A DNA stretch of 53,367 nt, taken from NCBI GenBank assembly GCA_049315725.1, contig JBMOJP010000004.1, positions 1 through 53,367 on the forward strand. The letters run 5' to 3'. Positions 12,709 through 21,592 of the stretch are shown here, in pieces. The notes beneath the pieces were generated by a model, which saw only the letters and a list, made by a program, of their open reading frames with translations, did not search any database and had not been told where the DNA came from. The stretch is from Chthoniobacterales bacterium (lineage in GTDB: Bacteria; Verrucomicrobiota; Verrucomicrobiia; Chthoniobacterales; JACTMZ01). Both the position numbers and the translations under genes were made by a program. The stretch's first letter is position 1. Each line of letters opens with the position of its first letter.

Positions 12709-13458
12709 ATGGCCTCCGCCCGTCTGAAGAAAATTGTGACCTACGCGAACCGCTACCTTCGCCTCGCCGAGGTTGAGGACTATGCGGGGGCTCACAATGG
12801 CCTTCAGGTGGAGAATGGTGCAGGAGTTCAGCGCGTGCTGGCCGCAGTGGATGCTGGACTGCCGACCCTGCGGAAGGCGGCAGCGCTCGGGTCCGGTTCG
12901 CTGCTCGTGGTGCACCACGGGCTTTTCTGGTCCGGCGTGCAGATGGTCTCCGGCGTGTGGCGGGAGAAGCTGGAGATCATGCGCCAAAGCGACCTTTCGG
13001 TTTACGCCGCGCACCTGCCGCTCGATGCGCATGAGGTCGTGGGCAACAACGTGTTGCTCGCTCGGTCGGTCGGCGTGCGCAGCTTGAAGCCCTTCCTCGG
13101 CTTTGGCCGTGCGGGGACTTTTGCCGGATCGCGTGCCGATCTTGTTCGGGCCGTCCAGGCCGCGACGCATCGTGTGCCTCTGGTCTGCGCGGCTGGTCCG
13201 TCCAAACCCCACCGGGTCGGCGTGGTTTCCGGGGGCTCTGGCGACATGGTGGACAAGGTCGCGGCCGCCGGGGTGGACACGTTCATCACGGGCGAGGGAC
13301 CGCAGTGGAGTTGGGTCCGGGCCGAGGAATTGGGGCTCAATGTGATTTACGCGGGGCACTACGCGACCGAAACATTTGGGGTGAAGGCGCTGGCTGCGCA
13401 CCTGGCCGGGAAGTTTCGCCTTCCTTGGAACTTCGTCGACCATCCGGTCCCGTTGTGA
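12709..13458 (+). CDS. Nif3-like dinuclear metal centre protein (GTP cyclohydrolase 1 type 2 homologue)
   Basis: NGLQVE..., LLVVHHGLFW, and the C-terminal AGHYATE motif. Internal Met chosen. Confidence 0.8.
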   Translation: MASARLKKIVTYANRYLRLAEVEDYAGAHNGLQVENGAGVQRVLAAVDAGLPTLRKAAALGSGSLLVVHHGLFWSGVQMVSGVWREKLEIMRQSDLSVYAAHLPLDAHEVVGNNVLLARSVGVRSLKPFLGFGRAGTFAGSRADLVRAVQAATHRVPLVCAAGPSKPHRVGVVSGGSGDMVDKVAAAGVDTFITGEGPQWSWVRAEELGLNVIYAGHYATETFGVKALAAHLAGKFRLPWNFVDHPVPL

Positions 13459-14039
13459 TCCCGCGGGAATTTTTCACCCAGCCTCCCATGCATTGCGCGC
13501 GGGCTCTGGTGGGGTGCGAACTGGTCTGGGGCGGGTGCAGCGGCGTCATCGTGGAATGCGAGGCCTACGCAGCCCTCGGCGATCCCGCCTGCCACACGTT
13601 TTCGCGTCCCTCGGCCCGCAGATTCGTCGCCGACCACCCCGCCGGCACCGCGTATGTTTATCTCAACTACGGCATGCACTGGATGCTCAATGTCCTGATC
13701 AAGGGCGACGTGGATGGCTTTGTTCTGCTCCGGGCGATCGAGCCCCGGCGCGGCGTGGCGGCGATGCGGCGGCGGCGCGGAGAAAAGGAAGGGCGCGAAC
13801 TCACGGGTGGCCCCGGGCGTCTGGCCTCCGCGCTGGGAGTCACCGGCCGCGATCATGGCCGGGATTTATGCGCATCCCCGCGCCGGTGTTTTTTGCCGGG
13901 CGCGCCGGCCGAGGTCGCGGCCGATGGACGTATCGGAATCTCCCGTGCCCAAGAACTGCCCTGGCGCTTCTCCCTGCGGGGCAGCCGGTTTGTCAGCGTG
14001 CCCGTGCGGACGAAAAAAAAACCAAGCCGCGGAGGTTAG
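13455..14039 (+). CDS. mpg: DNA-3-methyladenine glycosylase (Mpg/AAG family)
   Basis: ARALVGCELV..., VECEAY...DPACH, AYVYLNYGMHWMLNV, GPGRLASALGV. GTG start overlapping the nif3-like stop (GTGA). Confidence 0.75.
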   Translation: MIPREFFTQPPMHCARALVGCELVWGGCSGVIVECEAYAALGDPACHTFSRPSARRFVADHPAGTAYVYLNYGMHWMLNVLIKGDVDGFVLLRAIEPRRGVAAMRRRRGEKEGRELTGGPGRLASALGVTGRDHGRDLCASPRRCFLPGAPAEVAADGRIGISRAQELPWRFSLRGSRFVSVPVRTKKKPSRGG

Positions 14040-14291: not shown

Positions 14292-14813
14292 TCAGGCCGT
14301 GCCGCCTGCCGCCTTGTTTCCGAGAGGCGGCTCAATCGTCACCGGGGTCCCGGCGGAAACCATTTCGTGCAGCGCGACCATGTCGGCATTGCGCAGCCGC
14401 ACGCAGCCATGGCTGGCGGGTGAACCGATCAGGTCCTCCTGATTCGTCCCGTGGATGTAGACAAAGCGGGCCAGCGTGTTGCTGTTTTCGGGGTCAAGCC
14501 CGTCGAGGGTGAGCACGCGGCTGAGCACATGATCCTCCTCACCACCGGGCTGGGCGATCTCGCCCGTGGGCTGCCGCGAACGAAAGATGCTCCAAGCCGG
14601 CGCGTGTGCGCCGATTTTTTCCCGAATGACAAAACGTCCGGTCGGTGTGCGGTAGCTGCCCTCCTCGCAGCCAAGGCCGAACCGCGAAGTCGAAACGGGA
14701 AACTCCGCCAGAACCTCGGTGCCCTCGGTCACGCGAAGGGTTTGGGTGGCCACATCGACCAACACCGCGCGCTGGGCGGGGGAGGGTTCGGTTGCTGCTT
14801 TCTTGATCGCCAT
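14292..14813 (-). CDS. L,D-transpeptidase (YkuD) domain protein
   Basis: ...YIHGTNQEDLIGSPASHGCVRLRNADM... catalytic His/Cys motif. Confidence 0.75.
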   Translation of the reverse strand: MAIKKAATEPSPAQRAVLVDVATQTLRVTEGTEVLAEFPVSTSRFGLGCEEGSYRTPTGRFVIREKIGAHAPAWSIFRSRQPTGEIAQPGGEEDHVLSRVLTLDGLDPENSNTLARFVYIHGTNQEDLIGSPASHGCVRLRNADMVALHEMVSAGTPVTIEPPLGNKAAGGTA

Positions 14814-14847
14814 GGTTGCTCCCTCGGCTATTCTCTCCGGTTCTCTC

Positions 14848-15855
14848 ATGAGCAGGAACTACCATGTAGCCATCGTCGGTGCAACCGGTGCCGTCGGGAT
14901 CGAAATGATGCGGGTGCTGGAGCGGCGGAATTTTCCCGTCGGAAAGCTGACCCTGCTGGCCTCGGCGCGCTCGACCGGGAAAGTGCTGGAGTTCCAAGGA
15001 CAGCCTGTGGAGGTGAGGGAACTGACGGCGGAAGCGTTCGCCGGTGTAGATTTCGCGCTCTTCAGCGCGGGCGGCGGTATCTCGAAGGAGTTTGCGCCCG
15101 CGGCCGTCGCCGCCGGTGCCGTTGTCGTCGATAATTCGTCGGCCTTTCGCCTGGACCCGGCCGTCCCGCTGGTGGTGCCCGAGATCAACCCGGAGGCCGC
15201 CCGGTCCCACCGGGGCATCATTGCCAACCCGAACTGCACCACGGCCATCACGCTGATGGGCCTTTGGCCGTTGCACCGCGCCTTCGGTGTCCGCCGCCTC
15301 TGGGCCTCCAGCTACCAGGCCGTTTCCGGCTCCGGCGCGAAGGCGATCGAAGAGCTCAAAGCCCAAGTCGAAGCGCTGGCCCGCGGCGAGCAGCCGCCCC
15401 GTGCGATCTATCCCTGGCAGATCGCCTTCAATGTCATCCCGCAGGTCGATGCCTTCCTCGACACCGGCTACACCAAGGAGGAAATGAAGATGGAAAACGA
15501 GGGCCGCAAGATCATGGGCCTGCCGGATTTTCGCGCCTCGGTCACCTGCGTGCGCGTGCCGGTCTATCGCGCCCACAGCGTCGCAGTCAGCGCCGAGTTC
15601 GATCGTCCTGTTTCCGTCGCCGCCGCCCGCGAGGCCCTGGCGACTGCCCCCGGCCTCAAGGTGGTGGACGAACCATCGCGCCACGGCTACCCCGTGCCGC
15701 TGCATGTCGCGGGTCAGGACGATTGCGAAATCGGCCGCCTGCGGGCGGACTGCGCCTTGGACAACGGCCTGGCCTTCTGGATCTGCGGCGACCAGCTTCT
15801 CAAGGGCGCCGCCCTCAATGCCGTGCAGATTGCGGAGTTGTTGGTCGAGCGCTGA
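14848..15855 (+). CDS. asd: aspartate-semialdehyde dehydrogenase
   Basis: HVAIVGATGAVG..., IIANPNCTT active-site Cys, SSYQAVSGSG. Internal Met of ORF 14719..15855. Confidence 0.9.
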   Translation: MSRNYHVAIVGATGAVGIEMMRVLERRNFPVGKLTLLASARSTGKVLEFQGQPVEVRELTAEAFAGVDFALFSAGGGISKEFAPAAVAAGAVVVDNSSAFRLDPAVPLVVPEINPEAARSHRGIIANPNCTTAITLMGLWPLHRAFGVRRLWASSYQAVSGSGAKAIEELKAQVEALARGEQPPRAIYPWQIAFNVIPQVDAFLDTGYTKEEMKMENEGRKIMGLPDFRASVTCVRVPVYRAHSVAVSAEFDRPVSVAAAREALATAPGLKVVDEPSRHGYPVPLHVAGQDDCEIGRLRADCALDNGLAFWICGDQLLKGAALNAVQIAELLVER

Positions 15856-15876
15856 ACGCGCCCCAGCCTGTTCGCA

Positions 15877-16137
15877 TTATTTTGCGTAGTGAAATCTGAG
15901 TTGTGCGATTTCAAGATTCTTTGCAGCAATTCGGTAAACCATACGATGCTCATCCGTGATACGGCGAGACCAGAACCCAGCAAGGGCGTGCTTCAAAGGT
16001 TCAGGTTTCCCGATCCCGTCATAATGGCTCCGCACAGTGTCCTTGATCAGTTCGTTGATTCTTCTGATCATTTTTTTATCCGTTTGCAACCAGTGCTGGT
16101 AATCTTCCCAAGCTTGGGGAGAGAAAACAAGATTCAT
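15877..16137 (-). CDS. yoeB: YoeB/Txe-family toxin
   Basis: MNLVFSPQAWEDYQHWLQTDKKMIRRINELIKD...SRRITDEHRMVYRI...FHY. 4-nt overlap with the antitoxin gene. Confidence 0.85.
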   Translation of the reverse strand: MNLVFSPQAWEDYQHWLQTDKKMIRRINELIKDTVRSHYDGIGKPEPLKHALAGFWSRRITDEHRMVYRIAAKNLEIAQLRFHYAK

Positions 16138-16397
16138 GCCTCCACCAGGTCTTTGACGTTCTTTCTGACGGTCTTTCCAGAGTTCAGACTCTCAATCGAC
16201 GCAAGTAAGCGCTTTGCGTTGGCTGGTGACCGAAGCAGATAAGCAGTTTCCTGAAGTGATTCATAGTCATCAAGAGAGAGCATGACCACAGCCTGGTCAC
16301 GATTGCGCGTAATGATAACGGGGTCATGGTCAACGCAAACTCTGTCCATTGTGGAGGCAAGCTTTTCTCTCGCTGCGGTGTATGTAATTGCAGTCAT
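16134..16397 (-). CDS. yefM: YefM/Phd-family antitoxin
   Basis: MTAITYTAAREKLASTMDRVCVDHDPVIITRNRDQAVVMLSLDDYESLQETAYLL. I prefer the internal Met because the longer ORF would run into the attC-like core at 16451. Confidence 0.8.
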   Translation of the reverse strand: MTAITYTAAREKLASTMDRVCVDHDPVIITRNRDQAVVMLSLDDYESLQETAYLLRSPANAKRLLASIESLNSGKTVRKNVKDLVEA

Positions 16398-16450
16398 ATG
16401 GACAACATCATGCACATGCACAGGAACCGTGTCAAGGACGATGTTTTTCT

Positions 16451-16612
16451 GGCGAACGTTCCCGATCACTTGCTCCCACTTGCTTTTGGCCCAGAGGGTG
16501 CGTAAGCAGCCTCTGGGCCAAAAGTGCCGAAGGCATGGGAGTTAAGTGCATCGGCCCGTTCCAGGGGCGCAGTCAAAGCCTCCGCTACGCTGCAGCCTTT
16601 ATCGTCAGACAT
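16451..16612 (-). repeat. composite attC-like site (two palindromic modules)
   Basis: Module A (16451..16563) has arms GGCGAACGTTCCCGATCACTTGCTCCC / GGGAGTTAAGTGCATCGGCCCGTTCC and an inner perfect 15-bp stem CTTTTGGCCCAGAGG / CCTCTGGGCCAAAAG. Module B (16564..16612) is near-identical to 18262..18315. Confidence 0.5.
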
Positions 16613-16618
16613 TTTGAT

Positions 16619-16996
16619 TTAGTCAGGCAGTTTAAAGGTCCAATAAGCGAGCGGAACAAGAGCGAGCTCGAGAACAATATATAAAATGAGAATCGGCTTT
16701 GGCTGACCATCGGCAAGGTAACTAAACAGCCTGCCACCCAGAAGACCTCCGGCAAAAACTACACACGTGAGAACTGCAGTGCTCCTGTGTCTGTTACTGA
16801 AAGCTGAATAAAGCCAGAATACGGCAAAGCCAAGATACAAGCCCATCGTTGCTCTGAGAATGTGAGTGACATTCAGATCGACCTCAGGAATCCCTAGGAA
16901 TGTTCGTGCGAACCACTGTGGTGAAATGCCGTAGAGAAGCGCGATAATAGTAACGGCAAAGAACGCGAATATTAAAAAGTATCGTTTAAGTTTCAT
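16619..16996 (-). CDS. small 4-TM membrane protein (DUF4345-like), integron cassette ORF
   Basis: MKLKRYFLIFAFFAVTIIALLYG... with four hydrophobic helices. AT-rich codon usage unlike the flanking chromosome. Confidence 0.55.
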   Translation of the reverse strand: MKLKRYFLIFAFFAVTIIALLYGISPQWFARTFLGIPEVDLNVTHILRATMGLYLGFAVFWLYSAFSNRHRSTAVLTCVVFAGGLLGGRLFSYLADGQPKPILILYIVLELALVPLAYWTFKLPD

Positions 16997-17055
16997 GACT
17001 AAAGAAAGAGATAATGCAGTTGCATAGTATTGTCGAAAGGGTGATATTTTCTTGT

Positions 17056-17148
17056 GCCGAACGTCCAAAGTGACCGGATGGCGGGCAGAGAGGCGTCGCG
17101 GTCTAGCTGCGCACGTTCCCGCCATTCGGTCGACTGCTCATGTTCGGC
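17056..17148 (-). repeat. attC-like site (93 bp)
   Basis: Plus-strand GCCGAAC (17056..17062) and GTTCGGC (17142..17148) bracket the imperfect arms GTCCAAAGTGACCGGATGGCGGGC / CCCGCCATTCGGTCGACTGCTCAT, with unpaired bases. On the cassette strand this reads R''=GCCGAAC ... R'=GTTCGGC. Confidence 0.6.
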
Positions 17149-17160
17149 TTTTTTATGATT

Positions 17161-17544
17161 TCACGTGACTGCTACTGGCAATGGGCCAGCGGCGACTAAC
17201 TTTTTTTTCCGTGAATCAACAGTAAGATTCAGACCTTCGAGGCTTCTAGCTCCCAATAATAGCATGTCACCCTTCTCTGCAAATACTACCTCGTCGACAG
17301 TGAAGAATTTATCGACTCTAACTATAGCAAATCCAACGCTTCGCGTAATTTGCTGGCCGTTCGCCATCACAAATGCTAAATCCTTCTTCTCTCTTTTTAT
17401 ACCCAGTTTATCTAGCGTGGCACCCGCTACCCACGTATACTCACTGCCAGTATCAACTAATAATTTAGGTATAGAAGTCCCCTTGTCTCGATCAGAGACA
17501 TTCTCGATTTTTGCTCCAACATAAAATGTGCCCATATTTTTCAA
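17161..17544 (-). CDS. retropepsin-like (clan AA) aspartic protease, integron cassette ORF
   Basis: 127 aa with the LLVDTGSEYTWV active-site motif (DTG). AT-rich. Confidence 0.7.
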   Translation of the reverse strand: MKNMGTFYVGAKIENVSDRDKGTSIPKLLVDTGSEYTWVAGATLDKLGIKREKKDLAFVMANGQQITRSVGFAIVRVDKFFTVDEVVFAEKGDMLLLGARSLEGLNLTVDSRKKKLVAAGPLPVAVT

Positions 17545-17582
17545 ACTACCACACAGAATTTGGTGTGAAAAGTCATTTTTCG

Positions 17583-17710
17583 GCCGAACGTCCGCGATCA
17601 GATATCCCCACTTGCTTTTGGCATCCGAGCCTGCTCCGCAGGCGAAATGCCAAAAGTGCCGAAGGCATACGATTGCTGTCTGAGGATGAAGTGATCATCG
17701 AGGATTCGAC
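17583..17710 (-). repeat. attC-like site with module-A hairpin
   Basis: GCCGAACGTCCGCGATCA ... TGATCATCGAGGATTCGAC outer arms. Inner 10-bp stem CTTTTGGCAT / ATGCCAAAAG. Shares CCCACTTGCTTTTGGC...GCCAAAAGTGCCGAAGGCAT with 16476..16535. Confidence 0.5.
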
Positions 17711-18252
17711 TCAATGTGGGTCAGGGGTTCGGTGGTCTGGTTTGTTGAACTAAGCCGCTGCGCGGCATGTTGATGAAGGGGTTTGGTTGGGTGTGGGGTG
17801 ATCGGGAGGTGTGGGAAGGTGGTGGTTCATGAAGACCATCCGAGAACCAGAGCACGCCCGTCGCGCCCAAGCCCGGCTGGCTTTGCCCCTGCTGCGGCGC
17901 GGCCATGATCCCGCTCTTGCGCCTGCCCGCCCTCTGGAAAACCGGACGCGCCCCGCCGTCTCCGCTTGCTCACGCCGCATGATCACCCGAACCAACGCGA
18001 CCCACCCAGGCCTTGCTGCAACGAACGGCAAAGCAGCGCACCCGTCGTGTCGGCGACCGGGGATAATCGGCCCAACTGGGCCTTTATACACTCAATGGCC
18101 GCGCCATCCCTTGGGGCAAAATCCTCTCCGGCAACGAAAGGGCCAATATCCCGCCGCGGCTTGCGGCCAAAAATGGAACCAGCCGCGCCTCTCGGCCGCG
18201 CTCCCCCAAACATAAGAAGCAGTAGCCCGCCCCACCTCCGTCCCTCGGGCTT

Positions 18253-18318
18253 GTTCAACCAGGGGCGCAGTCAAAGCCTCCGCTACGCTCCGGCTTCGCT
18301 GCACCCTTTATCGTTTAG
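18253..18318 (-). repeat. attC-like site (about 66 bp)
   Basis: The cassette strand reads CCTAAAC-GATAAAGGGTGCAGCGAAGCCGGAGCGTAGCGGAGGCTTTGACTGCGCCCCTG-GTTGAAC, ending in a GTTRRRY-conforming core. It begins immediately after the stop of ORF 18320..18805. Confidence 0.45.
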
Positions 18319-18319
18319 G

Positions 18320-18805
18320 TTATTTCGCTTGGAAAGAATCGACGTGCTTTCGAAGGACGTCTGAAACGGCCTTCCATTGGGATTCTTTTGCCGTTGCAGT
18401 GACCAAGTATACTTTTCCTCGCGTTGAAACAGCACGAGCATAGTAGTGAAGAGCATTCCCTTGCATTGGGCCGGTGTATTCAACAATCCATTCGTTGTCC
18501 CCGCTTTGCTTCTCCGAGATGATAGTCACATTCATTTGTTTGAACTGGTCTTTCGACATGGCAATGTAACTCGTGATCGTTCCTACATATGGTTGAATGT
18601 TAACATTTATGTTCGGTGCAAATCCATCCTCCGTAGGTAAAAACGTCAGAAGAGCGGTTGTCGCTGTGGCAGCGGATGGTTGTGCATCAAGGGCCTCAAT
18701 TGCAAAGCCATATTGAGGTAGCTCAACAGGTGCTGCGGTTACATGGGCGGTTATAGCCGCGCTATAAAGAGCGGCTCCTATCAGTGCGATGTGTTGTTTG
18801 GTCAT
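18320..18805 (-). CDS. secreted hypothetical protein, first integron cassette ORF
   Basis: 161 aa with a signal peptide (ALIGAALYSAAITAHVTA-AP). AT-rich. No family recognised. Confidence 0.55.
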   Translation of the reverse strand: MTKQHIALIGAALYSAAITAHVTAAPVELPQYGFAIEALDAQPSAATATTALLTFLPTEDGFAPNINVNIQPYVGTITSYIAMSKDQFKQMNVTIISEKQSGDNEWIVEYTGPMQGNALHYYARAVSTRGKVYLVTATAKESQWKAVSDVLRKHVDSFQAK

Positions 18806-18840
18806 AAAGTGGTGTTGGTAGGGGAATGCGACTTATTTTT

Positions 18841-18901
18841 TCCGAACGTATTTTAGAATGATATGTAAACTTATCGGAAAAACATGATATCATGCTAAAC
18901 C
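18841..18901. other. putative attI region / divergent promoter region
   Basis: TCCGAAC (18841..18847; GTTCGGA on the cassette strand) lies 54 bp upstream of the intI start. Direct repeats ATGATAT at 18858..18864 and 18884..18890. Confidence 0.35.
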
Positions 18902-19714
18902 ATGAAAACTGACATCACAAGTCGTGCGCAGAAGGTGTGGGAGGAGCGGTGGGCGCGCTTCGCGTTGGGGTTGGCCCGCCGGGGTGTAGATCCGCAGAAG
19001 CACGAGTTTTGTCGTGCTTGGGTTCGCGGGTTTGTGGCTTTCATAAAGCCGAAGGGGTTTTCAGAAGCGGGGCTTGAAGACGTGGAATCCTATTTATCCA
19101 AGTTGGCGGCCTCTGGCAAGAAGGGATGGCAGGTCGCGCAGGCCGGGGAGGCGTTGCAGGTGATGTTCGGTGAGGTGGACCCGCGGGCGTGGGCCAATCC
19201 CTGGCCTGAGACGTTGATCGCGGCGGCGAGGGATACTTTGGATCGCACCGAGCCGGCGGATTTGCCGCGCGGGCCGGTGGGCGACGTGACAAGGTTTGAG
19301 GGTCGGACGGATAGCGGCGAGGTTCCGGAGAGGTATGCGGGCTTTCTCGATCAGATTCGCGAGGCCTTGCGGTTGGAGCGGTATTCTTACCGCACGCAAC
19401 AGACGTATGCGGGTTGGATCAAGCGGTTTCTCATCTTCGCCCAGCCGATCTCGCGCACGGAGATTTTGTGGGGCGCTGCGCAGGATTACTTGGACTATCT
19501 CACGCTCGTGCGGCGGGTTTCGGGATCGACCTTGAATCAGGCCTTGAGTGCGCTGCAGTTTCTGTTCCGCATCGTGCTGCGTCAGCCGGCCGGCGGGCTG
19601 GGTGAGGTGAAGCGGCCGCCGCGGTCGCAACGGCTGCCGACCGTGTTGGGCCGGGAGGAGGTGCGCTCCTTGCTGCAGGGGATGCAGGGGGCGGGGTTGC
19701 TGATGGCCGCGTAA
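18902..19714 (+). pseudogene. intI: integron-integrase-like tyrosine recombinase, N-terminal fragment (two SAM-like core-binding domains)
   Basis: ...ERYSYRTQQTYAGWIKRFLIF...SGSTLNQALSALQFLFRIVL...RLPTVLGREEVRSLLQGMQGAGLLMAA, then TAA where the LLYGxGxR catalytic region should begin. Confidence 0.7.
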
Positions 19715-20082
19715 AAGGCTTCGCCTCACGCGGTGTTTGTGTGAGGTTTTTTGGCTGTGTTTTATGTGTATGTTTTGCACTCGGGGCGGGATGACGGTTT
19801 ATAAATTGGCTTCACGGGCGACTTGAGACGCCGCTTGCAGGAGCACAAGGATGGCAAATCGCTTGCCACCTCGTTCCGAGGTCCGTGGACTCTGATTTAT
19901 TATGAGGCTTATGCAGAGCAGGCGGACGCGGAGGGGCGTGAACGATATTTGAAAAGCGGTTCGGGCCGAAGGTTTTTGGACAAGCAGCTTGTTCACTATT
20001 TCACGCGACACCCGCGACGGCTTGGCGGCTCCCCCAACATTCCCTCCTCTCCCCCAACCGCGTGAGGGGAACCCTTTTACGC
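19709..20082 (+). mobile_element. 374-bp GIY-YIG mini-element bounded by 25-bp terminal inverted repeats, inserted in or replacing the intI core
   Basis: The left IR is GCGTAAAAGGCTTCGCCTCACGCGG (19709..19733). The right IR is CCGCGTGAGGGGAACCCTTTTACGC (20058..20082). They are complementary at 23/25 positions. Confidence 0.55.
19751..20065 (+). pseudogene. GIY-YIG nuclease family (UPF0213-like) gene with in-frame TAA at the Tyr of the YIG motif
   Basis: Hand translation gives ..FYVYVLHSGRDDGL*IGFTGDLRRRLQEHKDGKSLATSFRGPWTLIYYEAYAEQADAEGRERYLKSGSGRRFLDKQL... The stop codon is at 19802..19804. Confidence 0.6.
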
Positions 20083-20086
20083 GGGG

Positions 20087-20191
20087 ACGGTGCAGGAATT
20101 ACTCGGGCACGCGGACGTGAGCACGACGATGATTTACACACACGTTCTCAATCGTCCGGGCCTGACGGTGCGGAGTCCGTTGGATGGGTGA
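20087..20191 (+). pseudogene. intI: integron-integrase-like recombinase, C-terminal fragment (box II with catalytic Tyr)
   Basis: [34 protein letters not shown], in the same reading frame as the N-terminal fragment. The ...VRSPLD ending is typical of IntI. Confidence 0.65.
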
Positions 20192-20416: not shown

Positions 20417-21592
20417 ATGCCGACGGATCCCGTCAATTCCCTGCTCTCGCCTGCGATGATCGCGGACCTCTGCCGCCGTGCGGCGGCGCCGGCGCGCCCG
20501 GTGCGGGAGGCGCGGCTGCTGCGCGATGGGGACGAGGCGTTTCCTGCCATGCTTGACCTCATCGGGGCGGCCCGGCATTCGGTTTGCTTCGAGAATTCCA
20601 TTTTCGCCGGGGATGCGACCGGGCGGCGTTTTGCCCGCGCCCTGGGCGACGCGGTGCGGCGCGGGGTGGAGACGCGGGTGCTTTACGATCCGGTGGGGAC
20701 GATGATGGTCAAGGGCGGTTCAGCCGCCAAATGCCTCGCCGCCGAGGGCGTTCCGGCGCGCGCTTTCCGTCCGGTCTCACTGCTCAGCCCCTTAACCTGG
20801 GTGCGGCTGCGTCATCGCGACCACCGCAAGAGTCTGATCGTGGATGGGGACACGGCGGTGGTGGGCGGGCTGTGTATCAGCGACAATTGGGCCCCGCGGG
20901 CCCAGGGCGGGCGGGATTGGCGGGACACAGCGCTGCTCGTTCGCGGTCCGCTGGCCGGCGATGTCGGCACGGCCTTCGAGGCCATGTGGCGGCGGGCCGG
21001 GGAGGTCGAGGTGCCGGTGCCGGCCGCGGCGGACATCATGCCACCCCCGGCACCGTGCGGCCTCGTCGCCGCCGACCAGCCGGGGGCGCACCATGTGGCG
21101 GGGCTCTACATCTGGCTGGCTGCTCACGCGCGGGAGAGTCTGGAAATCACGGACGCCTACCTTGTGACGCCCGAGCCGGTGGTCGCGGCGTTCGAGGCGG
21201 CGGCGCGGCGTGGCGTGTCCGTGCGATTTCTCCTCCCGGGCAGCAACAATCATCCGTTCGCCGCGGCCTCGGCCCGCCGGCGCTACAGCCGCCTGCTCGA
21301 CGCCGGGGCGCGCATCTACGAGTGGCGCGGGATGATGGTCCATGCCAAGACGGCGGTGGCGGATGGCGAGATTGTGCTGGTCGGATCGAGCAATCTGGAC
21401 ACGTTGTCGATGACGCGGAATTACGAGCTCAACCTGATCGTGGCCGACGCGGAGGTCGGCGCGAAGATGCGGGCGATGTTCAGCCACGACCTGCACGGGG
21501 CGCGGGAGATCCGGCCGGAGCAGTGGGCCCAGCGGCCGTTCTGGCAACGGGCCGCGGAGAGCGCGGCGCGCCTTTTCGATGACAACCTATGA
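20417..21592 (+). CDS. phospholipase D-family protein / cardiolipin synthase-like (two HKD motifs)
   Basis: HRKSLIVDG and HAKTAVADG...GSSNLD motifs. Internal Met of ORF 20306..21592. Confidence 0.8.
   Translation: MPTDPVNSLLSPAMIADLCRRAAAPARPVREARLLRDGDEAFPAMLDLIGAARHSVCFENSIFAGDATGRRFARALGDAVRRGVETRVLYDPVGTMMVKGGSAAKCLAAEGVPARAFRPVSLLSPLTWVRLRHRDHRKSLIVDGDTAVVGGLCISDNWAPRAQGGRDWRDTALLVRGPLAGDVGTAFEAMWRRAGEVEVPVPAAADIMPPPAPCGLVAADQPGAHHVAGLYIWLAAHARESLEITDAYLVTPEPVVAAFEAAARRGVSVRFLLPGSNNHPFAAASARRRYSRLLDAGARIYEWRGMMVHAKTAVADGEIVLVGSSNLDTLSMTRNYELNLIVADAEVGAKMRAMFSHDLHGAREIRPEQWAQRPFWQRAAESAARLFDDNL

Follow-up and report, generated by a model that had tools for sequence, protein, structure and literature searches.

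The stretch of DNA analysed here, referred to below as the window, comprises 53,367 nucleotides from a Chthoniobacterales bacterium (assembly GCA_049315725.1, contig JBMOJP010000004.1, positions 1 to 53,367), and our subject is the interval in it between asd, which encodes aspartate-semialdehyde dehydrogenase (14848..15855, plus strand; NF011456, 458.9 bits), and cls, which encodes a PLD-family cardiolipin synthase homologue (20417..21592, plus strand; TIGR04265, 220.3 bits; PLDc_2, 129 bits). The interval is very probably a small chromosomal integron of a soil Verrucomicrobium of the Chthoniobacterales/Terrimicrobiaceae type, in which the integrase gene, intI, is dead and a small GIY-YIG element occupies its core. 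intI is on the plus strand, with the attachment site attI 54 bp upstream and five cassettes that are transcribed in the direction away from intI. An integron by itself is a known type; the unexpected part is a hairpin-bounded GIY-YIG element that recurs in intI genes, co-oriented with them and accompanied by deletion of the recombinase core. Directly observed are the gene order, the junctions, the crossover point at attI, the attC sites, and the fact that an element of the same type recurs in other intI genes.

The interrupted integrase gene

An earlier interpretation made from the letters of the DNA (the sequence-only reading) had described a recombinase gene in two pieces of the same frame, and this is what is found, with TIGR02249 as the best family for both. 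The N-terminal fragment (18902..19714, plus strand, 270 codons) covers TIGR02249 positions 1-122 of 315 (E 4.6e-28), and the C-terminal fragment (20087..20191, plus strand) covers positions 281-313 (E 4.4e-14) and retains box II in the form LLGH...IYTHV...VRSPLDG. The former is made up of a lineage-specific N-terminal extension and a SAM-like core-binding domain, and Pfam marks two Phage_int_SAM_4 stretches in it, in agreement with the two SAM-like stretches first proposed. The extension of about 150 aa (window 18902..19340, IntI residues 1-147), which contains the second and weaker of these stretches, is shared by most of the 104 homologues of the N-terminal fragment; these are 440-472 aa long as opposed to about 320 aa for a classical IntI and, where named, are integron integrases of Chthoniobacterales or Terrimicrobiaceae. 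The locus is also a record of integrons in Verrucomicrobia whose IntI family is unusual for its long N-terminus. The fragment is 82-86% identical to the IntI proteins of loci L002 and L001, and three full-length relatives score 396-407 bits on TIGR02249, for which the curated cutoff is 265. The window IntI is short of about 157 residues in alignment A1, and the absent segment comprises the box I arginine, the IntI-specific insert (KYPNAATEWAWYWLFPA) and the HxxR motif.

Between the two fragments lies the GIY-YIG mini-element (19707..20084, plus strand), which is defined by its inverted repeats and by a match to PF01541. The repeats, at 19707..19733 on the left and 20058..20084 on the right (both plus strand), are 27-28 nt long and 93% complementary to each other, and each arm folds as a hairpin. 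The only open reading frame (ORF) of the element, 102 codons long (19757..20065, plus strand), encodes the GIY-YIG protein (PF01541, 48.4 bits against a cutoff of 22.6), and no NCBIfam transposase model matched. The nearest solved structure is that of a UPF0213 protein (PDB 1zg2, E 6e-6), and the residues Y5, Y16, R26 and E62 are invariant in 22 GIY-YIG homologues. Neither further copies of the element nor further hairpins of its kind were found in the window. The close intI relatives at L001 and L002 lack the element, and the junctions can be placed at the DNA level: window 19560-19707 corresponds to L001 495-642 and window 20087-20185 to L001 1118-1216, such that 475 bp of intI (L001 643..1117) have been replaced by 379 bp (window 19708-20086). 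The N-terminal fragment ends at a TAA contributed by the left hairpin. The integrase is thus destroyed, as had been claimed, but not by plain decay, since its catalytic core has been replaced by a discrete element.

The copy in the window is itself broken by an in-frame TAA (19802..19804) at the codon for the YIG tyrosine, Y16. Loci L005-L007, which are 98% identical and have identical junctions, carry TAC at this position, and an intact twin, P0105, is 99% identical to the window protein; the window copy has acquired its nonsense mutation since. The left hairpin is also overlapped by a terminator-like hairpin with a T-run (GCCTCACGCGGTGTTTGTGTGAGGT TTTTTGG, 19723..19757), and the GCCTCACGCGGTGTTTGTGTGAGGT hairpin could stop transcription from the intI promoter before it reaches the GIY-YIG gene.

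Recurrence of the GIY-YIG element

Eighty metagenome loci were gathered from a GIY-YIG protein alignment alone, with no reference to intI, as those nearest to the window protein. In at least 44 of the 80, pieces of intI abut the GIY-YIG gene on the same strand when judged with a profile of 67 full-length IntI proteins, and three further intI loci were recognised by eye from their flanks. TIGR02249 is likewise the best family for fragments from nine other loci, one of which scores above the full-length cutoff. There are about 17 distinct left junctions, falling between IntI positions 46 and 354, and about 12 distinct right junctions, between positions 266 and about 449; wherever both sides are preserved (19 of 19 loci), at least 53 profile positions are gone and the catalytic centre is always among them. 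The interrupted integrase genes can be as little as 30-40% identical to that of the window. One example is the locus of P0147, a GIY-YIG protein 74% identical to the window copy whose gene directly follows a truncated N-terminal fragment of intI in a different integron, which has an attI-like core and a cassette of its own.

The element has the same boundaries in all loci, whether in intI or not. Its left end is CCGCGTAAAAGGCTTCGCCTCACGCGG, about 45 nt before the GIY-YIG start codon, and its right end is the reverse complement of CCGCGTAAAAGGCTTCGCCTCACGCGG, which often provides the stop codon; the 27-nt reverse-complementary ends are present in nearly all of 83 loci, and the length of the element ranges from 335 to 420 bp. 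The hairpins covary, with 64 double-change cells compared to 17.4 +/- 3.4 in shuffles, and 94.7% of hairpin cells are paired compared to 19-50% in slid controls. The GIY-YIG genes are under purifying selection: 77 of the 83 ORFs are intact and the median dN/dS is 0.11. GIY-YIG identity correlates only weakly with the identity of the host IntI (r 0.35), as illustrated by L026 and L045, where the GIY-YIG proteins are 89% identical and the IntI proteins 39%, and the intI-associated copies are spread over many branches of the GIY-YIG tree.

These observations can be set against the view that the locus reflects ordinary decay, in which a random deletion removed the integrase core and an unrelated small gene with no special relation to integrons ended up in its place. 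About one third of genomic intI genes are pseudogenes (PMC2426708), the window taken alone records a single event, and its GIY-YIG copy is itself damaged, all of which would fit such a history. What makes it very unlikely in our estimation is that the order N-terminal piece, hairpin, GIY-YIG gene, hairpin and C-terminal piece, all on one strand, recurs across the intI loci counted above, with many different junctions and in integrase genes so divergent from that of the window. The differing junctions and host identities also speak against a single locus that was inherited vertically.

A second possibility is that the arrangement has been domesticated, with the N-terminal DNA-binding domain of IntI directing the GIY-YIG nuclease to att-like DNA in a new host function. 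The co-orientation in 44 of 44 loci, the strong purifying selection on the nuclease and the N-terminal fragment ORF that remains open in the window, L005, L006 and L008 are what one would expect of such a module. However, the spread of the left junctions leaves no constant partner domain, the hairpin-borne stop codon falls in frame in only 10 of 28 cases, as often as chance would have it, many loci retain only a C-terminal remnant, and the same element occurs in contexts other than intI. We regard domestication as improbable, if somewhat less so than ordinary decay. A meaningful in-frame succession of N-terminal piece, GIY-YIG gene and C-terminal piece was also considered and rejected: the frames are random across the loci, and the one-frame arrangement in the window is therefore a matter of chance.

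We judge the odds to be about even that the hairpin-flanked unit, with its UPF0213-like nuclease of 90-102 aa, is an undescribed autonomous selfish element with a large clade specialised on intI. A full-text literature search found no description of this element. That it is mobile, and by what mechanism, is inferred: on this reading a selfish mobile unit would land preferentially in intI genes, and the integrase core would have been lost either when it arrived or through subsequent recombination or deletion at its ends. The intI-specialised clade would enter in sense orientation, invariably at the cost of the recombinase core, and would have moved horizontally between very different integrons.

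Several findings weigh against the selfish-element reading, or at least temper it. As the 80 loci are those nearest to the window protein, the intI fraction among them may overstate the figure for the whole family. The junctions across the loci show no consistent target-site duplication and no target consensus, and in no locus was a simple insertion into an otherwise complete intI seen, so insertion and deletion may have been separate events. Finally, the element has other homes: in 12 loci it occupies a conserved site between mtgA and an exonuclease gene, in 4 it is found at the 3' end of a tRNA gene, and it also occurs with a fragment of an IS91-type transposase.

These other contexts have features of their own. 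Eight loci (L033, L041, L056, L057, L073, L086, L089 and L093) belong to a separate GIY-YIG clade with mtgA upstream, in which the terminal GTG of the right hairpin is the start codon of the 5'-3' exonuclease gene, a conserved intergenic home. L062, L069, L076 and L079 have the element next to the 3' end (CCA side) of a tRNA gene, with a 20-nt duplicate of that end on the far side of the element. Two different GIY-YIG genes stand in tandem within one intI remnant at L083 (2495..3079), L090 (616..1436) and L094 (127..715), the second being only 40-44% identical to the query, and a second hairpin is nested in the loop of the right-end hairpin at L026, L028, L037 and L045. At L031 (428..1720) a GIY-disrupted intI remnant is followed on the same strand by an apparently complete intI-like gene. 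Viral contigs were searched for the element and none carried it.

Among known mobile DNAs the element has partial parallels. IS1111-attC insertion sequences and group IIC-attC introns are integron-specific parasites that target attC and leave intI intact. The GIY-YIG element resembles them in that its insertion sites are confined to an integron component, but it lies within the coding sequence of intI, whose catalytic core is lost in every case, and it has neither a DDE/DEDD transposase nor a reverse transcriptase. With free-standing GIY-YIG homing genes, such as the Seg genes of phage T4 or the intron-encoded paradigm I-TevI, it shares a small nuclease gene in a conserved target, presence or absence between close relatives, and a nuclease that is selected while its target is damaged; it differs in having only the catalytic domain of about 90 aa (UPF0213-like) and no DNA-binding extension, in its hairpin inverted repeats at both ends, and in junctions that vary and mark no single precise site. 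The presence or absence of the element in close intI relatives and the loose coupling of GIY-YIG similarity to host similarity are indirect signs of homing. Closer in form are REP/RAYT units and IS200/IS605-type elements, which also combine one small nuclease gene with flanking inverted hairpin repeats, minimal size, no target-site duplication and nested or solo hairpins nearby; here, however, the enzyme is of the GIY-YIG type and not an HUH Y1 transposase, and there are no dispersed solo hairpins in the window. With insertion sequences and transposons in general it has terminal inverted repeats in common, but a target-site duplication and a known transposase family are missing.

Bacteria capture genes mainly through integrons, and the dead integrases of many chromosomal integrons have mostly been attributed to random decay. 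Here the cause of integrase death appears to be a specific, recurrent and selected element. If the targeting of intI is real, the GIY-YIG unit would be a natural antagonist of integron activity that explains part of the load of intI pseudogenes in environmental genomes, a systematic cause both of such pseudogenes and of 'CALIN'-type arrays in soil bacteria. It would also be the first parasite known to attack the integrase gene itself and not attC sites, and its architecture, a nuclease and two hairpins, would be a new minimal type among mobile DNAs.

The attachment site, the cassettes and their attC sites

attI (18842..18901, plus strand) begins with the core TCCGAAC at 18842..18848 and continues through a conserved stretch, GTATTTTAGAATGATAT...CATGATATCATGC, up to the start of intI. 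This 54-bp stretch is kept in L002, where intI is 82% identical, and in L005 and L006, where it is 98% identical. The window and these three loci share a common sequence to the right of the position immediately following AAC (bottom strand, 18848) and are unrelated to its left, the pattern that cassette exchange at the canonical crossover leaves behind; the proposal that a GTTCGGA core 54 bp from the recombinase start marks attI is upheld by this four-locus comparison, which sets the crossover point. L002, L005 and L006 have also kept a perfect palindrome, CATGATATCATG, which in the window lies at 18884..18896, shortly before the intI start codon; CATGATATCATG is a candidate operator for intI regulation. 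No minus-strand sigma-70-like site that could serve as the cassette promoter Pc was found at 18805-19100, a search for which the consensus may not fit Verrucomicrobial promoters.

All cassette genes are on the minus strand, and the plus strand of the window corresponds to the bottom strand of the attC sites. The gene content had been listed correctly: the secreted protein is PsbP-like, the retropepsin-like protease belongs to clan AA, the four-helix membrane protein is a DUF4345 protein, and YefM-YoeB was matched. The cassette genes are also AT-richer than their surroundings, as described (GC 0.42-0.53 versus 0.62-0.73 in the flanks), the exception being the region 17750..18260, which is GC-rich (0.60-0.66), has no ORF and had been overlooked.

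Cassette 1 carries the PsbP-like gene (18320..18805, minus strand; PF01789, 32.2 bits), whose exact product also occurs on L098, a locus that is 100% identical to the window over 18269..19150. Its attC (18252..18319, plus strand) is of a short type and decayed: its homologue, the attC of L029 (31-100), folds well (z -5.0) when compared with the window copy (z -0.8). Cassette 2 (body at 17753..18251, minus strand) is recognised by its composition and contains no credible ORF; it had no Pfam match and no match in a plasmid BLAST, and a 91-aa ORF in it had no homologue among 1.84 billion representative proteins. Its attC (17583..17752, plus strand; detected by the covariance model described below) is chimeric, with an insert of about 55 nt and a moderate fold (z -2.3). 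Homology to the attCs at L002 321-431 and L025 1025-1137 places its outer box, GTTGAAC, at 17746..17752, and not at the GTTCGGT that had been taken for the outer box of the site beginning at 17583. Cassette 3 encodes the clan-AA (retropepsin-like) aspartic protease (17161..17544, minus strand; PF13975, 33.1 bits; PF13650, 28.4 bits), starting at TTG 17544 or ATG 17535, and ends in a canonical attC (17056..17148, plus strand; identified by DNA fold and by the model) of the form GCCGAAC...GTTCGGC, with an 8-bp outer box, a 5/5 unpaired spacer, a long inner stem and a single base bulging from the 3' arm (z -4.5). Cassette 4 encodes the DUF4345 membrane protein (16619..16996, minus strand; PF14248, 73.6 bits), and its short-type attC remnant (16559..16612) is fused to the right side of a well-folded attC at 16452..16565 (plus strand; repeat D4), which has two bulged bases on the 3' arm (z -8.0). 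The predicted extrahelical bases are thus found on the 3' arms of both well-folded sites.

Cassette 5 is a toxin-antitoxin cassette in which yefM (16134..16397, minus strand; NF008499, 109 bits against an equivalog cutoff of 121; PF02604, 87 bits) and yoeB (15877..16137, minus strand; TIGR02116, 112 bits against a cutoff of 51.8; PF06769, 125 bits) overlap by 4 nt and are preceded by a sigma-70-like promoter, TTGACA-17-CATGAT, at 16435->16407. Its attC (15852..15876, plus strand; bottom strand GAACGCGCCCCAGCCTGTTCGCA) is truncated to 25 nt that contain only the outer boxes, and shows no significant fold. That this pair is a member of the array, as had been suggested, is borne out by its occurrence elsewhere: homology to L099-L103 ends at the cassette borders (16446/16459 and 15869/15870), and in L099 the same TACGAAC box is still followed by a full attC. 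A YoeB of identical sequence turns up in 154 blocks of the searched collection, in unrelated neighbourhoods. The sites of exact YoeB in L099-L103 include a position between sulfatase and GDSL lipase genes and another next to an IS21 element, and the cassettes there look like solitary ones outside integrons. The pair resembles known YefM-YoeB integron cassettes in the overlap of antitoxin and toxin and in having its own promoter-like site, but it is the last cassette here and its attC is internally deleted, with the consequence that excision is probably no longer possible.

If a cassette can circularise, its start should be the reverse complement of its own outer box, and this relation is seen here: GCCGAAC at 17583 is matched by GTTCGGC at 17142 (7/7), GTTCAAC at 18252 by GTTGAAC at 17746 (7/7) and, for the toxin-antitoxin cassette, GGCGAAC at 16452 by GTTCGCA at 15870 (6/7). 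The original statement that every gap holds a palindrome with the ends GCCGAAC...GTTCGGC is exact for 17056..17148 alone; 16452..16565 has other ends, and two of the sites are degenerate.

A covariance model, CM R1, was built from six sites of L002, L003 and L025 only, with a structure consisting of the outer and inner boxes, and was run over both strands of the entire window with filters off. It represents the long attC type alone, as MAFFT could not align the short and long types together. The three best matches are on the plus strand at 16451-16562 (60.3 bits, E 5e-12), 17583-17686 (45.9 bits, E 1e-8) and 17056-17148 (30.3 bits, E 4e-5), all of them in the predicted gaps and on the predicted strand, and the next-best match in the window scores 16.2 bits. 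The model also detects untrained sites upstream of intI in L003, L018 and L025, and several inner-box (L-box) pairs covary in alignment A4. A simpler scan for outer boxes and fold energy was dropped as unspecific, since it gave seven plus-strand and five minus-strand candidates across the GC-rich 53 kb. Rfam has no attC family, and its sole match at 15-21 kb is a chance miRNA-like hairpin.

Some of these results count against an integron. The covariance model is lineage-specific and shares motifs with two of its three matches, two of the five attC sites have no significant fold and another is chimeric, and the IntI-specific additional domain is not visible in the window because it would sit in the deleted segment. 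One might then see the interval as a genomic islet with a remnant of an XerC/D-like or phage-type recombinase, interspersed with REP-like repeats or terminators; the array is short, some of the intergenic palindromes fold poorly, and the crude motif-and-fold scan finds similar hairpins elsewhere in the GC-rich window. This alternative is scarcely credible, however. TIGR02249 exceeds the XerC and XerD models by more than 60 bits on the N-terminal fragment and by about 20 bits even on the 34-residue C-terminal fragment, which disposes of the XerC/XerD identity that had been named as grounds for abandoning the integron, and relatives at 65-86% identity carry the IntI-specific insert and exceed the curated cutoff. 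The breakpoint at attI is cassette-specific, and the covariance model is specific as to strand and place. With intI relatives of this quality, attI located by comparison and the matches to the attC model, the proposal of a chromosomal integron with a destroyed integrase holds and withstands the refutation tests that had been named for it.

Sedentary chromosomal integrons with an inactivated intI, for example the Xanthomonas arrays, are the closest known counterparts; intI pseudogenes have been surveyed (PMC2426708). They likewise have a divergent intI and attI, a non-functional integrase, co-oriented promoterless cassettes that end in attC and a toxin-antitoxin cassette with its own promoter. 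The window differs from them in its Verrucomicrobium host, in the long N-terminal extension of IntI with its second SAM-like stretch, in having only five cassettes, and in that inactivation is due to a GIY-YIG element and not to a point mutation or an insertion sequence.

Probable cassette exchange and the chromosomal setting

The loss of the integrase had been taken to freeze the array, an inference that is contradicted here. L005 and L006 are 98% identical over the disrupted gene (intI::GIY) and have the same junctions, but their first cassettes differ and their homology stops exactly at the attI core. The cassette content at attI can thus differ between platforms with the same dead integrase, and these comparisons suggest that the array is probably not frozen in the population: either an integrase acting in trans still serves attI, or the disrupted allele has spread between backgrounds. 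Cassettes at attI were probably still exchanged after the element had arrived, through a trans-acting integrase or by homologous replacement, and the downstream attC sites meanwhile decayed by internal deletion, fusion and insertion.

The second of these alternatives leaves room for a frozen array if the arrays of L005 and L006 had diverged before the disruption and the intI::GIY allele had later passed between strains through homologous recombination or homing. Such spread is what one would expect of a nuclease of the homing type, and the different genomic background of L005 and L007 is in keeping with this: what follows intI there is not cls, unlike in the window, and an insert of about 88 nt, GC-rich, lies in the C-terminal fragment of intI after ATGATTTA (L005 1907..1981, L007 556..645). 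On the other hand, no second intI was found within the window, but the rest of the genome is unseen. A sharp break at the attI core is the product of integrase-mediated exchange, and the spread of the allele requires that a recombination endpoint should have coincided with that core. We therefore consider a frozen array possible but doubtful, and favour continued exchange at attI.

The flanking genes are those first described, asd on the left and a PLD/cls-like gene on the right, although the cls homologue scores below the curated TIGR04265 cutoff of 290 bits; its start is at 20417, and the called product is the 391-aa form P0225. On the left, the asd stop codon overlaps the last attC remnant, that of the toxin-antitoxin cassette, and contig L004, whose last position is the stop of asd, also carries the exact Asd protein. 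A cls relative that is 90% identical is preceded, at a distance of only 118 nt, by a YkuD gene and lacks an integron, while an HtrA-like gene precedes those at 77% identity; downstream, the order cls, a 302-aa protein and a GH1 enzyme is kept in relatives. As the upstream neighbours of cls differ and the downstream synteny is kept, the integron occupies a variable chromosomal point. L001-L003 showed no synteny with the window and nothing in common with it beyond intI.

Two further genes lie upstream of asd. A YkuD-domain gene (14292..14849, minus strand) is identified by the Pfam annotation of the same gene on L004, and since a YkuD gene is directly upstream of cls in the 90%-identical relative, this suggests a rearrangement at the chromosomal point of the integron. 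The other, at 13305..14039, is a 3-methyladenine-glycosylase-like ORF, as read from its translation.

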